From: a virus
Virus record (IMG/VR): IMGVR_UViG_3300022752_000036
Span: 31,646 to 95,645 of that record
Length of the DNA stretch: 64,000 nucleotides
Strand: one strand, 5' to 3'
A model generated the notes under the pieces. That model saw only the letters and a program-made list of their open reading frames with translations, did not search any database and was not told the DNA's origin. A program made the position numbers and the translations under genes. Each line of letters starts with the position of its first letter. The first letter of the stretch is position 1. Of the stretch, positions 30,285-55,255 are shown in pieces.

Positions 30285-32144
30285 TTATGCCCATGCCGTA
30301 GATTGTGCTGTTGATGTGCCGCCACTATTTGTTGCCGTTACCGAAACCCATCTAGCCCATGTATATGTAGAGCTATTTCTAGTAACGGTTACGCTACTTG
30401 CTGATGCCCCCCAGGTTCCATTTCCTGTATTTGAAGCTAATACTGTTCCTCCATTTGAGTTTGCAAATTGTATTCCCCAATCATAACTGGTTGGCCTTGA
30501 TCCTCCAGTCCAAGTTATTGTGAGAGTCCATGTAGAAACTCCGCCTGGCGAACTAAAAGCATTTGAAGCTGTAATTGTTGGTTTTGTTACTGTAGGGGCC
30601 GAGTCTGTAGTTGATGAGGTAACAGATGACCATGTTGACTTTAATCCTGTAGATCCTACTGCTCTAACCCAATAGTACCTTGTTGTTCCAGCTGACAGTC
30701 CGCTATTTGTATATGATGTGCTTGTAGTTGAAAAGTCTGCAGCAACAGAATCAGATGGAGTTGAATTGCTACCTAGCCAATATATTTCATAAGAAGCTGC
30801 TCCAGATACAGCATTCCAGGAAATTACTATTGCAGTTTGTCCGCTTGCATAAGATGTAACGCCTGTAGGAGTTCCTGGAGCAACAATTGGTTGTTGAAGT
30901 GGACCACCTTCTGTTCCAGCTGCATAAGCAGATGTTCCTCCTGCATTTGTAGCAGAAGCATATGGTCTATAGTAATATCTTCCTGTTCCATCATAGTCCG
31001 AAGATGGAATTAAATATGTAGACGATGTAACATTTCCTGGAGCAGCAACTAGTGTTTCGCTCATTACAACACCTGGGGTTCCTCTATAAAGTCTTAAATC
31101 ATAACTAGTAGGACTATTGCTCCATGAACCGACTCCGTATGTTAGTGTAGTTGAGTTTGCAGTATATGATCCTGTTGGAGAAAGTGTTGGTGCAGAAGTA
31201 TTTACTGGAATTGGATTTGAAAGAGTTGCATTACCACTATTACCATATCCTGAGTATTTAGTTGATGCTCCAACTGCTGTTCCATATTGAACTCCATATC
31301 CTTGATAGTTAGTACTTCTTGGATAAACTGTAAATGTTCTTGTACTTGTATCTGGAGGACTATAAGTATAAGAGCTTAATGTAGTATTAGTAAAATAACT
31401 TCCATTTATATAAATATCATATGAAGATGCGCCAGGCGCCGAACCCCAAGATAGACCTATTGTATATGAAGTATTTACTGATCTAACATCTAAACTAATT
31501 GTGCCTGCTGTTCCTGTTCCAGAAACTGTTCTGGATGAATAATTAAATGAAGGTGTTCCAGCTGTTCCATTCATTACGCCTTCGTATGTTGTAGCATTTG
31601 CTGCTGCATTCCAAGAACCAGAATATGTTAGATCGCTTGTACTTAAAGCATTTACTGAAGGAGTACTTGGAGTAGCAGTAGTATCAGAAACTGTTAAAGA
31701 ATTAACTATTGGTAACATAATTATTCCAGAACTTACATTTACAGTAGTAGACCCTCTAAGATTAGTTGCTGTTACTTTACATCCTATAATAGTTTCAACA
31801 TCTGCAGCAGTTGTTTGATATGTATTTAAAGTCTGCCCTGATATATCTGATCCATTTCTTGTCCATTGATATGAATAAGAAGTTGGAATATAAGGATCTG
31901 ATGAATCCCATGATCCAGTAGTTACTACATACTGACATCCAATTCTTCCGCTTGGATAAGATGGTGTGTTGACAGATAATGTTGGAGAAGATGTATTAGA
32001 TGGAAATTCTGGATAGTTTATTACCCAATTTGAACCATTAAATATCCATGCCTGTTTTGCTTTATACCAGTTTGCGTCTGTATGGAATATCCTAAACGAT
32101 TTTGCATTTAGCCAAGTTGAACCATCGAATATTTTTATTGTCAC
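30285..32144 (-). CDS. Ig/FN3-repeat Ser/Thr-rich adhesin or fibre protein
   Basis: NTSxPTLS...YSYQW Ig repeats; FN3 (ISWNAVSGAASYEIY...TTRYYWVRA); Trp-rich N-terminal docking segment. Confidence 0.8.
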   Translation of the reverse strand: MTIKIFDGSTWLNAKSFRIFHTDANWYKAKQAWIFNGSNWVINYPEFPSNTSSPTLSVNTPSYPSGRIGCQYVVTTGSWDSSDPYIPTSYSYQWTRNGSDISGQTLNTYQTTAADVETIIGCKVTATNLRGSTTVNVSSGIIMLPIVNSLTVSDTTATPSTPSVNALSTSDLTYSGSWNAAANATTYEGVMNGTAGTPSFNYSSRTVSGTGTAGTISLDVRSVNTSYTIGLSWGSAPGASSYDIYINGSYFTNTTLSSYTYSPPDTSTRTFTVYPRSTNYQGYGVQYGTAVGASTKYSGYGNSGNATLSNPIPVNTSAPTLSPTGSYTANSTTLTYGVGSWSNSPTSYDLRLYRGTPGVVMSETLVAAPGNVTSSTYLIPSSDYDGTGRYYYRPYASATNAGGTSAYAAGTEGGPLQQPIVAPGTPTGVTSYASGQTAIVISWNAVSGAASYEIYWLGSNSTPSDSVAADFSTTSTSYTNSGLSAGTTRYYWVRAVGSTGLKSTWSSVTSSTTDSAPTVTKPTITASNAFSSPGGVSTWTLTITWTGGSRPTSYDWGIQFANSNGGTVLASNTGNGTWGASASSVTVTRNSSTYTWARWVSVTATNSGGTSTAQSTAWA

Positions 32145-50835: not shown

Positions 50836-51576
50836 TTAGTTATATTTCTTTCTGTTCCAGTATTTCCTTTTATAGTAACCTATAGAGCCTTTTTCATGAG
50901 ATTTACTGTCAATCTTGTTTCTAGACATTAAAATCTTACTAACTTGCATTTCCCAGTCTTGTCTCTTAAAAGGAAGCAGTTGTGCAATAGGGGTATTTTT
51001 TTTAATAACCCCTTCAAAATCTTCTCTTAGAAAAAATGGAATATTTCCACTTGGCACCCACCCATCACTATCTATTATTCCAGACAATGTTGTAAATGGT
51101 AGATCGTGTCTATTGAATGGATGCGTTACTAAAACAGAGTATCCTCTTGGGACCTTCCAGCCCCATTTTCCAGACCATACAAAATGATTTTGCATATGTC
51201 CTGCTGGTCTTGGAATTGTTGAGCCTGTAGATGACTTTCTTTCATTAATAAGTCTGCTGACTATTTGATTTTCTTCAACCTTATGATTGTGAGAATGTCT
51301 TTTTTTGTACGGCTCAAAAGATCCGTCCTCTTTAAGAACGCCATCTTCTATATATAAAACTCCATCTTCTTTATATATTCTAACATCATCAATTGTTGTC
51401 AAAACATATCCAGATAACATTACGTCTAAAAATGGTACGCAAGTTTTTAATGCTGCGGAACCATGTTCATCATATGTTTCTCCATCTTTATACCACTGAG
51501 GTATATGATTTTTTACTGGAGACGGAACAATTATATTTTCCAACCCTATAGATGGAACAAATTTAATTTTTTTCAT
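50836..51576 (-). CDS. dUTPase-like beta-fold protein of unknown function (paralogue family, DUF6065-like)
   Basis: IPQWYK, KTCVPFLD..LSGY, GYSVLVTHPFNR.DLPF.TLSGIID, TPIAQLLPFKR; family name from recall, needs HMM check. Confidence 0.6.
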   Translation of the reverse strand: MKKIKFVPSIGLENIIVPSPVKNHIPQWYKDGETYDEHGSAALKTCVPFLDVMLSGYVLTTIDDVRIYKEDGVLYIEDGVLKEDGSFEPYKKRHSHNHKVEENQIVSRLINERKSSTGSTIPRPAGHMQNHFVWSGKWGWKVPRGYSVLVTHPFNRHDLPFTTLSGIIDSDGWVPSGNIPFFLREDFEGVIKKNTPIAQLLPFKRQDWEMQVSKILMSRNKIDSKSHEKGSIGYYKRKYWNRKKYN

Positions 51577-51584
51577 TTACAATC

Positions 51585-51863
51585 TTAAACTGGTGGAGTA
51601 AATGTAGTTCCATCATAAGACCAGTCTTGGCTGATTCTTACTTGAGATGTGGATCCGTCTTCATGCTGAATATCTGGGAATGTTATTCCAGTAATATCTA
51701 CAATTGTTGGATTGCTCAAAATAATAGCCCACATTCTCTCGTCAGTAGATAGCGTTTGAACAACTTTTCCATCAATCACATAAGCTAACTTTTTAATATT
51801 TTCAGCTGGCTCTGCTGGTGGAAGCTGTTGTGTTGCTAACCATGCCTCGTATGCTGTTGTCAT
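51585..51863 (-). CDS. Small adhesin-partner protein
   Basis: LAYVIDGKVVQTL...SNPTIVDIT...WSYDGTTFTPP; ATGA overlap. Confidence 0.65.
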   Translation of the reverse strand: MTTAYEAWLATQQLPPAEPAENIKKLAYVIDGKVVQTLSTDERMWAIILSNPTIVDITGITFPDIQHEDGSTSQVRISQDWSYDGTTFTPPV

Positions 51864-52102
51864 ATTATTTCCTCCTCTATTTTTTGTTGATTCCATTTTC
51901 CAATGGGACATGATGCATTAGGAAGCTTTACTTTAGCTGTCATTATGCAACCACATTTTTTACATTGGGTTGTAGGCTTTATGAAAAATTCACAAGCCCT
52001 ACAAATTTCCATTCTTTCATTTGCAGTTAGGTTATCAACACGACCTATTTTTTTATTATATAGGTCCCATGGTCTGGCTGGCCTTTCAAAAGGATCAGTC
52101 AT
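51860..52102 (-). CDS. Small 6-Cys protein (DUF6171-like)
   Basis: RMEICRACE...CKKCGC.M.AK...ASCPIGKW; family name from recall. Confidence 0.7.
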   Translation of the reverse strand: MTDPFERPARPWDLYNKKIGRVDNLTANERMEICRACEFFIKPTTQCKKCGCIMTAKVKLPNASCPIGKWNQQKIEEEII

Positions 52103-52475: not shown

Positions 52476-53822
52476 TTAATTTACCCTAAATTCGTCAATA
52501 GTGTACCCTTGGCTTGCATTTGAAGCTCTTGAAATTATACCATGCTCTTTTGACTTTTGTCCAGAGTGGGTTGCTGTTAAATCTGAACCAACCTGAGAGG
52601 TTAAATTAGTATCTGAATAAGCTTTAGCTGTAATATTATCTCCGCTTAATGTAACCTGTATTCCCTTAATATCTGTGGTCAAATTAGTTGTAGATCCTAC
52701 AACTGTTTCTGTGCCAGAAACTTTTTTAACTAAGTCTATTTTATGATGGTCTTGGCAACTGCAATTAAATGTGTAATAAGAAGCGCAACCGCAGCTAGAA
52801 TTAGGTCCGTATGAATATCCACTACAATATGTGCATTGGTTATATGCAGCACATACTGTACAGGGTGTATATCCATTGCAGTATGTACAGTTATTGTTTA
52901 CAGAACATATAGTACAACTTGTATAAGAAGTGCAGCAACTTTGTTGTGCGTATCCATTACAAACTGTACAAGTTCCATATCCAGTACAATATAGACATGG
53001 TCCATATCCTAAACAAGTTGAAACTACACATGTTGTATACCCTGCACAAGCCTGACATGCTCCATATGCGCTACAACTTGTTACTGCACAAAGATAGTAT
53101 GTTGAACATATAACACCGCCTTTATATGCATTATAAGTATAAGCAGCACAGCAAGAATATGAATAATATGTATATTGACTTGTACAACATGTGTAAGTAT
53201 AATAAGAAGAACAGCAAGTATAATAGTAATCTGAATATCCTGCTGAACAACACGCATAATATCCATATGATGTACAACAAGATTGAGTTGTATATGAGTT
53301 ACAAACAGTACATGTTCCATACCCGTTACAACAAGAAGTTGTTGTATATGAAGCACATCCACAACTAGAATGCTGTCCATATGCATATGAATTACAGCAT
53401 GATGTTGTTGTATAAGAAGCACAGCCACAACTTGAATCTGATCCGTATGAGTATGAACTGCAATATGAGCAGCTATTATAAGATCCACATGCGGTACAAG
53501 TTTGACATAAATTTGTAGTATTTTTAACTACTGCCCAGTAATTGCCAGAATCTGTTACCCAAAAAGCAGGGCCTACTCCAGATGCTGGATTTTTAGCTTT
53601 TAGTACTGCATCTGTTGAAGAAAACATTGTAGATATTAAGGAGCCAATTGACGAGGTTGTGCCTTTCCCGCCTGAAACTCCCCATCCTGAAACTACCGTT
53701 CTCCATTTGGCAGATGTAGATCCAGCATTTTCTAATGTGGCTCTAGAAAAATTTTCTACAAGAGAAAGCAATGCTTTTAGTCTAGAAGCAATGACATTTA
53801 CTCTTCGTTTTTTTGCTGGCAT
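52476..53822 (-). CDS. Beta-sandwich adhesin with a 50-Cys, Tyr-rich mirror-repeat insert
   Basis: TAATG-coupled start MPAKKRR; lectin-like flanks (AFWVTDSGNYWAV / IQVTLSGDNITAKAY...HGII...IDEF) around Cys repeats at 52755-53507. Confidence 0.8.
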   Translation of the reverse strand: MPAKKRRVNVIASRLKALLSLVENFSRATLENAGSTSAKWRTVVSGWGVSGGKGTTSSIGSLISTMFSSTDAVLKAKNPASGVGPAFWVTDSGNYWAVVKNTTNLCQTCTACGSYNSCSYCSSYSYGSDSSCGCASYTTTSCCNSYAYGQHSSCGCASYTTTSCCNGYGTCTVCNSYTTQSCCTSYGYYACCSAGYSDYYYTCCSSYYTYTCCTSQYTYYSYSCCAAYTYNAYKGGVICSTYYLCAVTSCSAYGACQACAGYTTCVVSTCLGYGPCLYCTGYGTCTVCNGYAQQSCCTSYTSCTICSVNNNCTYCNGYTPCTVCAAYNQCTYCSGYSYGPNSSCGCASYYTFNCSCQDHHKIDLVKKVSGTETVVGSTTNLTTDIKGIQVTLSGDNITAKAYSDTNLTSQVGSDLTATHSGQKSKEHGIISRASNASQGYTIDEFRVN

Positions 53823-55255
53823 TATGCAGTTGTATCTCCTGTAATGTACCAAGAATTAGTTGAATGTTTTTCTGCTACAATTGAAGAATACTGGACTCTG
53901 GTTTTAAATCCGCTATCTGCTGCTACTGCGGTGGCTGGGCTTGTAACAGAAATTGTTACTTGTCCTGTGCCCATTTGTCTAATTTCAAAATATGATCCTA
54001 TTGGAAATATTGTATCTCCAACATCATTTGGAATAGTAATTGTAACTGGCGAATTAGATGATGAATGAATTATTTTATATAGATCTGTTGCCGCAATAGT
54101 TCTTGTTGTTCCAGATTGACTTATATATTGCAATTTATCATCAGATTTTAAATTTAAAGCTGTTTGAGTTGCTGTTGATATTGGTTTATTAGCATCAGAT
54201 GTATTATCTACATTTGATAGATTTGCTATTGCTTTTGCTGTAGCAGATCTATTTCCTACAAATATTGTGCCTGCCATTGATGCGTGATATTGACATGCAT
54301 AAAATAAGCTTGGCTCTGGTGCAGACTGACTCAGTTCTACTAAAATAGAACCATTATCTGTTCCGTTGTTTGTTATTCCTGTTGAATAAACATTTCCAGA
54401 ACTATAGGCTCCCGAAACAGTTTGAATCCAAAATGGATGCCCTGGTGCATTAACAACTATTCTATATCTTTTACCTTTTTCAAAATAGAGTGTTCCATTA
54501 GCTATACCATTAACTGTATATGATCCCATTCCAGCATTTGTTATATAGTAATCTATTGAAGCTTCTGTTTTTGGAACATATGTAGCTGTAGCTGTAGAAG
54601 TATCTAGCTTAGTTCCAAGTGATGTTGTTACAGTTGATGCAAATGAAGCATCATCATTTATTGCTGCCGCCAATTCATTTAAAGTATCAAGCGTAGATGG
54701 AGCAGAATCTATAAGATTTGCTATTGCAGTTGAAATTGCTGTATTTCTATTTGTAACTTCTGTAGATATTGCTGAAGATAATTCTGAGTCTCTAGTTATT
54801 CCAGGTGGCAACTGAGAATTAGGAACATATCCGTCTCCGTCAAGTTCTGCTACACCGTCGGCATTACCCATAAGAGATAATGGAATATATCCTGTAGTTA
54901 TGGTATTAGAAAGACCATTAATTGCTGTGTCTACATATGTTTTATTTGCAATTACAGATGTATCTACATCAATTGTAAGTGTACCTGGATTAGATCCTTG
55001 ATCATCATAAGTTAAATCTATTCCTGTTCCACCTATTAATGTATCTCCTAAATAATCTTGAACTAATTCAAGCAGTTCTGCTGGAGTTGTATTTATATAA
55101 GGCAAAACCTGCCATCTTGAAGTTGCATCATTTGCAATTCCTACTTTAAATTTTTTATTTGTTGTATCATAACCCATTTCTCCTGCCTGCAAGATTGGAT
55201 TATTTGTTGTCCAGTTTGACGCTGTATCTCTTCTTATCTGTATTCTAATTGCCAT
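53822..55255 (-). CDS. Fibre protein: Mtd-N/hyaluronidase-like N-terminus, cupredoxin-like domain, C-terminal tip domain
   Basis: IQIRRDTASNW...NPILQAGEMGYDT; GHPFWI...LFYACQYHASMAG; RVQYSS...WYITGD. Confidence 0.8.
   Translation of the reverse strand: MAIRIQIRRDTASNWTTNNPILQAGEMGYDTTNKKFKVGIANDATSRWQVLPYINTTPAELLELVQDYLGDTLIGGTGIDLTYDDQGSNPGTLTIDVDTSVIANKTYVDTAINGLSNTITTGYIPLSLMGNADGVAELDGDGYVPNSQLPPGITRDSELSSAISTEVTNRNTAISTAIANLIDSAPSTLDTLNELAAAINDDASFASTVTTSLGTKLDTSTATATYVPKTEASIDYYITNAGMGSYTVNGIANGTLYFEKGKRYRIVVNAPGHPFWIQTVSGAYSSGNVYSTGITNNGTDNGSILVELSQSAPEPSLFYACQYHASMAGTIFVGNRSATAKAIANLSNVDNTSDANKPISTATQTALNLKSDDKLQYISQSGTTRTIAATDLYKIIHSSSNSPVTITIPNDVGDTIFPIGSYFEIRQMGTGQVTISVTSPATAVAADSGFKTRVQYSSIVAEKHSTNSWYITGDTTA

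Follow-up and report, generated by a model that had tools for sequence, protein, structure and literature searches.

A two-armed, cysteine-laddered insert in a predicted lectin domain from the tail-fibre module of uncultured phages

The ladder gene and its complementary arms

The present work deals with a stretch of viral DNA of 64,000 nucleotides, positions 31,646 to 95,645 of the IMG/VR record IMGVR_UViG_3300022752_000036, which is called the window in the following. It is part of a 95.6-kb viral contig of an uncultured phage with an estimated completeness of 88%, on which genes for a portal, a protease, a long tail protein and many fibres are encoded. Our analysis concerns a gene on the minus strand of the window, here termed the ladder gene, whose product carries a Cys-rich core, the stalk, between the two halves of a predicted lectin-like domain, the base. 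The respective open reading frame (ORF) spans positions 52476–53852 and opens with TTG. The start of the gene is almost certainly the ATG at 53822 (MPAKKRR...), which gives a protein of 448 amino acids (aa), because this codon and the stop that ends the upstream fibre gene overlap (TAATG), an AGGAG motif lies 14 nucleotides (nt) upstream and the relatives start at the equivalent Met. The gene and its parts are the following:

52476–53822, minus strand: ladder lectin protein gene, 448 aa, stop included; the ATG overlaps the upstream stop codon
53508–53822, minus strand: N-terminal part of the base (residues 1–105), with a basic/amphipathic conserved N-terminus and the first strands of the predicted concanavalin A (ConA)-like sandwich; family motif GVGPAFWVTDSGNYW
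53148–53507, minus strand: N arm of the stalk (residues 106–225), 25 Cys, mostly in CC doublets 7 or 10 residues apart; two YGxxSSCG units
53326–53483, minus strand: 66-nt tandem duplication within the N arm, two copies of a unit pair of one 13-mer and one 9-mer with 77% DNA identity
53109–53147, minus strand: distal turn AAYTYNAYKGGVI (residues 226–238); Y228, Y230, Y233, K234 and G236 are conserved among close relatives
52755–53108, minus strand: C arm of the stalk (residues 239–356), 25 Cys, mainly in Cx5C-x2 nine-mers and Cx5C-x4 eleven-mers
52479–52754, minus strand: C-terminal part of the base (residues 357–448), the remaining strands of the predicted lectin sandwich; the final 28 residues are nearly invariant

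Translation of the core (52755–53507) yields 251 aa, among them 50 Cys, 44 Tyr, 40 Ser and 35 Thr. The turn AAYTYNAYKGGVI divides the Cys residues into 25 before and 25 after it, the arms measure 119 and 117 residues and 11 CxxC motifs occur in the protein. An initial annotation, made from the DNA letters alone, had proposed this Cys-rich region, its extent and the equal division of its 50 Cys, all of which is confirmed by the translation, the strand being the minus strand. It had further described 11 pairs of short repeat units that complement each other when both arms are read outward from the turn. All 11 pairs are present: one partner of each pair, and never both, is of the Cx5C type; the two 12-mers stand opposite the two 11-mers; three YGxxSSCG units face three N-x-C-x-Y units; and the polarity of the arms swaps coherently twice, at pairs 6 and 11. 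For units of this composition, random placement on the C arm would bring its two 11-mers and its two non-Cx5C units opposite their partners with a probability of 1/(55 x 36), about 5e-4, and the comparative evidence for the pattern is far stronger than this figure.

Coordinated change of the two arms

A search of 5.8 billion proteins returned 71 relatives of the ladder protein, and an HMMER pass over 1.84 billion cluster representatives yielded 149 clusters (50% identity) at E <=1e-3. For a comparison of the arms an alignment of the query and 39 relatives with 51–94% identity was used (alignment A1), in which rungs were defined by pairing the Cys residues outward from the turn and the gaps between successive rungs were compared. 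In 40 of 40 sequences the number of Cys in the N arm equals that in the C arm, with values of 14, 15, 16, 17, 18, 20, 21, 24 and 25 per arm. The gaps fall into classes in which a short gap on one arm stands opposite a long one on the other (1/6, 6/1, 7/1, 2/6, 6/2; 8/3, 3/8, 11/3, 3/11; 11/5, 5/11, 10/5) and into classes with equal gaps (9/9, 11/11, 11/12).

Symmetric gain and loss of units on both arms had been set beforehand as a test of the hairpin, and it is what the alignment displays: all differences between the A1 sequences are two-sided, without exception. Relatives with a length of 408–409 aa have four rungs fewer than the query and lack 22 aa in the N arm, corresponding to one copy of the 66-nt duplication, together with 18 aa in the C arm, corresponding to two 9-mers, at the same rungs. 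The unit types of both arms are exchanged at the same rung in P0005 and P0016, and within the group P0027–P0040, in which the polarity is reversed throughout, both arms change jointly in their number of single-Cys 11-mers, which ranges from two to five. Each of the Cys losses which could be traced (171+296, 212+256 and 203+265) removed one Cys per arm and converted 3/8 plus 6/1, or 1/6 plus 8/3, into 9/9. Altogether, roughly ten independent coordinated events were counted, with zero exceptions.

The symmetry recurs, with other unit types, among the distant members of the family: P0057 consists of five C..VPGN units, a turn and five C..xYP units, and P0130 carries seven Cx3C opposite seven Cx4C. 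Over 116 cluster representatives the lengths of the two arms correlate with r = 0.95, and their median difference amounts to 9.9%; with shuffled gaps it rises to 21%, and the observed value was not attained in any of 500 shuffles. A shuffle test of the cumulative register, which is weak for highly periodic sequences and invalid for members with a central knot, was positive at p<0.05 for 29 of 153 sequences. The matching two 9-mer pairs of the C arm share 67% DNA identity, versus 77% for the duplicated copies of the N arm, which indicates that the two arms grew by separate events. As far as can be judged from sequence comparison, the pairing of the Cys residues is nested across the arms, as in a cystine-ladder hairpin.

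The arms could also be imagined as independent tandem knots, each of them a granulin-like stack of hairpins with local disulfides and with an incidental mirror pattern. The N-arm spacing CC-x7-CC-x7-CC does resemble the granulin framework, a stack of four beta-hairpins with six local disulfides (PMC7463432). However, the number of Cys per arm is odd in the query (25) and in relatives with 15, 17 or 21, the arm counts agree throughout A1, and arms more than 100 residues apart undergo indels, swaps and Cys losses in concert, a combination which purely local bonding of the granulin kind cannot explain. The 12-Cys local framework of granulin (PF00396) was not found by Pfam search either. Tandem knots are thus strongly disfavoured, and we attach hardly any credence to them.

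The family members share two terminal domains, one of about 105 aa at the N-terminus (motif G-x-G-x-AFWVTD-x-x-NWW) and one of about 92 aa at the C-terminus, which enclose a core of about 75 to about 400 residues; the number of Cys ranges from 0 to 50. All members derive from metagenomes or uncultured phages and are wholly unannotated. The family is essentially viral, since 200 loci in IMG/VR compare with a single one in 185,579 species-representative prokaryote genomes. This lone match is located on a 12-kb contig of a metagenome-assembled genome (MAG) which is labelled Bacteroidetes and is probably a mis-binned phage contig; one relative bears an Actinobacteria MAG label. A tblastn search of the ladder protein against 50,697 GenBank phage records gave no match, searches of Pfam and PHROGs assigned it to no family, and the matches in the ESM Atlas are confined to unnamed viral and actinobacterial clusters. 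A profile search against PDB sequences produced nothing beyond weak matches to domain II of alphavirus E1 (E 0.011), which were taken as noise due to Cys content and composition.

The lectin base and the tail-fibre neighbourhood

The base of the query itself was poorly modelled with the shallow alignment. A short relative (P0047), whose base is homologous and 35% identical to that of the query, was modelled by AlphaFold2 (AF2) with a deeper alignment of 128 sequences (A2). In this model both termini jointly form the base with a predicted local distance difference test score (pLDDT) of about 97, the predicted template modelling score (pTM) is 0.74 and the core is of low confidence. Structural comparison of the P0047 base by VIA-align resulted in Z scores of 16.8 for the central fibre protein gp20 of mycobacteriophage Douge, 16.0 for the carbohydrate-binding module (CBM) CBM66, 14.9 for the receptor-binding domain (RBD) of TM4 gp23 and about 12 for legume lectins, and the Foldseek probabilities of the matches were 0.99–1.00. 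Outside the family, the matches in BFVD come from phages of Arthrobacter, Gordonia, Rhodococcus and Mycobacterium, in which they are minor tail or tail-fibre proteins. As modelled, the base is a ConA-like lectin/CBM sandwich of two jelly-roll sheets, which agrees with the lectin-like sandwich from which the stalk had been expected to project. The stalk had also been regarded as an insert in a fibre adhesin; in this point the initial annotation has to be corrected, as the insert resides in a stand-alone ConA-like lectin domain that is encoded directly after a fibre gene.

Two neighbouring features are of importance for the following considerations:

53825–54214, minus strand: conserved C-terminal domain (about 95–130 aa) of the upstream fibre protein, at the end of gene 53822–55255; candidate docking partner
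51860–52102, minus strand: 80-aa protein with six invariant Cys (CxxC...CxxCxC...CP), DUF6171-like, which co-occurs with the ladder gene

The genes are arranged in the order fibre (477 aa, Mtd_N), ladder, 126 aa, 80 aa with six Cys, 108 aa, 246 aa (DUF6065-like) and fibre (959 aa), an arrangement of the cassette that 12 related viral contigs share. The flanking genes match tail-fibre and minor-tail PHROGs and Mtd_N, which assigns the ladder gene to a tail-fibre module. Mtd_N, the N-terminal domain of the major tropism determinant, occupies residues 5–39 of the upstream fibre protein (53822–55255, minus strand; E 4e-13).

Synteny was counted in 84 diverse IMG/VR loci. The ORF directly upstream of the ladder gene terminates in a homologous domain of about 95 aa (consensus ...FPIG...Q.G.GQ.T...K.R.QWS...W...GD.TA) at 55 of 83 loci, although these ORFs vary in length between 123 and 1666 aa, and the ladder protein might dock to this domain. 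Of the 63 loci with enough sequence, 61 encode a homolog of the 80-aa protein downstream of the ladder gene, in the same orientation and at a distance of no more than 3.5 kb, among them one (L015) at which the ladder protein is only 28% identical. The pattern of the 80-aa protein reads R..xCxxC...T..CxxCGC.M..K..L....CP..KW, and the similarity to DUF6171 (E 4e-5) lies below the Pfam cut-off. The protein could be a partner in folding, oxidation or assembly, or could simply be syntenic; the co-inheritance of the neighbours in general may reflect function or merely the synteny of a lineage.

The 246-aa protein (50836–51576, minus strand; phrog_7084) is co-located with the ladder gene in 62 of the fetched loci. 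Its nearest ESM Atlas clusters are DUF6065-like, and neither Pfam nor the PDB sequences contain a match to it. A cupredoxin-like copper site considered for the upstream fibre (54251–54583, minus strand; GHPFWI ... CQYHASM) gained no support from sequence comparison, no cupredoxin match being obtained with Pfam at E <=1 or with PDB sequences.

The base and the stalk differ clearly in variability. The entropy of the N- and C-terminal parts of the base is 0.61 and 0.63 bits, respectively, and the root of the ladder is likewise conserved, whereas the non-Cys positions of the core average 1.48 bits with a peak at residues 181–290. Ratios of nonsynonymous to synonymous substitution rates (dN/dS) are 0.05–0.2 in the base and 0.15–0.72 in the distal core. 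For some gene pairs, the dS of the distal stalk is up to about 6–11 times as high as in the base of the same genes (e.g., 1.19 vs 0.18; L006, L009, L013); the data suggest that recombination between phages has exchanged distal stalk segments.

Variable Tyr/Ser/Thr/Gly loops on a conserved scaffold, the fold of receptor-binding heads and the adjoining fibre gene are together consistent with a part of the ladder protein in host recognition, which we consider rather likely. Alternatively, the ladder protein might take no part in host recognition and be a purely structural or non-virion accessory that acts in fibre assembly, as a decoy or in matrix binding, and the variability would then express weak constraint. 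Such a role would be compatible with dN/dS values below 1, and searches of Pfam and PHROGs revealed neither a shaft nor a known virion-attachment domain. On the other hand, phage receptor-binding heads have the same fold as the base, the ladder gene is translationally coupled to the fibre gene and follows the conserved fibre C-terminal domain at most loci, and the Cys scaffold is strictly kept while the loops vary. An accessory role appears improbable on these grounds.

Bonding and shape of the stalk

The number of Cys is even in 135 of 141 full-length members (binomial 4e-33, ignoring shared ancestry) and in 82 of 84 IMG/VR genes; it is a multiple of four in 76 members and leaves a remainder of two in 59. 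The initial annotation had left the choice between disulfides and rows of Cys4 metal sites. Disulfide pairs are favoured by the sequences, because the counts are even but not multiples of four, rungs of two Cys occur in tandem, Cys residues are lost in pairs and no zinc-finger profile was hit.

In a metal ladder, four Cys per node (CC plus Cx5C, or CxxC plus Cx7C) would hold Zn or Fe in a row of Cys4 sites. Most nodes of the query do comprise four Cys, CxxC motifs are frequent (see above), the co-occurring downstream protein with its six Cys is zinc-ribbon-like, and the ladder protein folds in a reducing cytoplasm. The total of 50 is not divisible by four, though, and the family members with two surplus Cys are nearly as common as those with multiples of four. 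Up to five successive rungs (11/11, 9/9) have only one Cys on each arm, and Cys residues disappear in twos and leave viable two-Cys rungs. The suspected resemblance to the CxxCxGxG motifs of DnaJ came down to a single chance string at residue 276; zinc-finger families, among them PF00684, gave no Pfam hit at E <=0.1. We therefore regard Cys4 rows as distinctly unlikely and disulfide rungs as the better description of the ladder. For Agrobacterium phage Milano disulfides are reportedly present in the virion (title and abstract of PMC10811340). A documented case of disulfides in the virion is that of Pam3, a freshwater cyanophage whose tail fibres are freed by dithiothreitol (DTT) (PMC9942802).

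With respect to the shape, the AF2 model of the query with A1 (mean pLDDT 68) shows a single long hairpin with strands 95–230 and 237–368 at pLDDT 70–88, in line with the antiparallel two-armed topology that had been proposed. A Foldseek search of the PDB with the full-length model gave no significant match; nearest in shape were pore-forming toxins with their long hairpin stems. The sum i+j of the nested Cys pairs alternates between 462–464 and 467–469. A regular antiparallel ribbon can only bring one of these classes face to face; the other would be five residues off register and on the opposite face. It is exactly these off-register Cys that are lost as cross-arm pairs (171/296, 212/256, 203/265), which argues for their being bonded to each other.

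If all rungs are bonded, the Cx5C segments (often x-G-Y-G-x) and the Cx7C and Cx10C segments must loop out, and the axial rise would be set by the short sides with 56 residues in total. From this we infer a stalk of about 19 nm or less, compared with about 40 nm for a flat ribbon. The expectation of the initial annotation that the hairpin would reach tens of nm if extended is hence unlikely to hold, since with alternating registers a regular ribbon bonds only half of the Cys pairs.

A flat ribbon of 40 nm may nevertheless be considered, a regular two-stranded beta structure in which the in-register Cys form intra-chain bonds and the other half link subunits or virion proteins. The AF2 strands are nearly uninterrupted and of equal length on both arms, the arms differ by two residues only (119 and 117), and the primary rungs, defined below, are evenly spaced on both. 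Furthermore, many receptor-binding proteins are trimers. Yet the off-register Cys vanish as cross-arm pairs, as intra-chain partners would, and G-Y-G turns abound in the x5 loops. By geometric reasoning, moreover, the off-register residues would lie on opposite faces of a regular sheet, and a hairpin barrel of cyclic symmetry would not allow a constant offset of 5; regular-sheet oligomers satisfying both Cys classes were rejected on side-chain parity, likewise by reasoning and not by computation. We take the flat ribbon to be unlikely and retain the looped-out rod as the working model of the stalk.

We propose, with some confidence but not without reservation, that the ladder protein is a tail-associated and probably receptor-binding protein built from a lectin base and a stalk laddered by Cys across its arms. 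The base, as modelled, is formed jointly by residues ~20–105 and 357–448 with the fold of the receptor-binding heads of actinophage tail proteins, and two adjacent strands of the sandwich would extend into the 251-residue out-and-back stalk. Twenty-five nested Cys-Cys rungs would tie the arms together, most likely as disulfides which form once the virion is in oxic water. In the sequences the grammar of the rungs always sets a short gap (CC, CxC, CxxC) opposite a long one (Cx5C, Cx7C, Cx10C), or else equal gaps opposite each other (9/9, 11/11). "Primary" rungs, about 9–12 residues apart on both arms, are always retained, and "auxiliary" rungs, composed of the second Cys of a CC and the inner Cys of a Cx5C, are dispensable, but solely as a cross-arm pair. 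With all rungs bonded, the stalk would become a rod of about 19 nm at most, from which about 24 small disulfide-closed loops would bulge alternately from each arm, each loop presenting a Tyr three residues past its Cys. The conserved root and base would anchor the protein, possibly on the C-terminal domain of the upstream fibre, and the fast-evolving, exchangeable distal half, rich in Tyr, Ser, Thr and Gly, would be the likely surface for host contact.

Several observations weigh against this proposal. Many of the 40 close sequences are related, and the coupling of the arms is supported by about ten independent events, not forty. The ribbon register of the AF2 model, read from its DSSP string, is i+j = 467, 465, 461, 457 and 461 and sets neither Cys class exactly opposite, so the model supports the topology and not the bonding. 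The cytoplasm of the host is reducing, so that the formation of 25 disulfides would require assistance or a delay until after lysis. Cys-free members of the family exist (P0129 and P0194, with cores of the Tyr-rich repeats PPSYYAG and YTYSYTY), which means that staples are not essential to the family architecture and that a base with a variable Tyr-rich insert is possible without them. Finally, dN/dS never exceeds 1, and the variability may stem from relaxed constraint and recombination instead of positive selection.

Elements which go beyond the initial annotation are the grammar of the rung gaps, the two-register argument with the bound on length, the dispensable Cys pairs, the C-terminal domain of the upstream fibre and the heterogeneity of dS. 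The assumption that no phage adhesin of such a build had been described is upheld insofar as literature searches on cysteine-rich or disulfide-laddered phage tail proteins yielded no description of a comparable architecture. More tentatively, the stalk may represent an architecture not described before, a length-adjustable rod of disulfide loops written in two complementary repeat languages, which uncultured aquatic phages would carry on a lectin base as a modular, recombinable and antibody-like Tyr-rich probe, and which the co-inherited six-Cys partner may fold or oxidise. This would be a new way of building a host-recognition organelle in phages, and it raises the question of how a virion part assembled in the cytoplasm acquires 25 disulfides and which role the six-Cys neighbour has in it. 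Complementary repeat types and lengthening by one unit per arm could also serve the engineering of rigid, protease-resistant display scaffolds.

Phage receptor-binding proteins of the lectin type are a known kind, to which the ladder protein would add a stalk module that appears to be undescribed. The modelled base shares its sandwich with Douge gp20 (PDB 8zdp/8zdq), the C-terminal RBD of TM4 gp23 (9n6a), CBM2 of the J-1 Dit (5ly8) and CBM66 (4b1m), with Z scores of 14.9–16.8, 149–169 aligned residues, root-mean-square deviations of 2.5–2.9 and identities of 4–16%. As for those phage domains, the gene is located in a tail/fibre cluster; unlike them, the ladder protein is a separate polypeptide and not the C-terminus of a fibre, and between two strands it bears a Cys-laddered insert of 75–400 residues. 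In T-even phages and S16, the adhesin gp38 is encoded by a separate gene adjoining the fibre gene, and the ladder gene has the same position. The scaffold of gp38 and of the glycine-rich domain of Pam3 gp24 (PMC9942802) is, in contrast, a Cys-free polyglycine-II lattice, with a different base fold and without homology.

Granulin/epithelin is a single chain of about 55 residues that is held together by local bonds (I–III, II–V, IV–VII and so on; PMC7463432). Its CC doublets, 5–8 residues apart, are reminiscent of the stalk, in which small beta-hairpin loops would similarly be stacked along a disulfide rod, and the granulin stack may serve by analogy as a picture of the local geometry. The partners in the stalk, however, lie on two arms far apart in sequence, and no homology to granulin was detected by Pfam. 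The closest counterparts in terms of bonding are cystine-ladder hairpins such as theta-defensins, protegrin and tachyplesin, regular hairpins of 17–18 residues with 2–3 rungs. The wording "cysteine ladder" has been used for theta-defensin (PMC13408038). In these peptides, as is putatively the case in the ladder protein, antiparallel arms are pinned by parallel cross-arm disulfides, but here 25 rungs with unequal loops between them would extend over 251 residues as an insert in a folded domain, and a true cross-arm disulfide ladder of 25 rungs would be by far the longest known to us.

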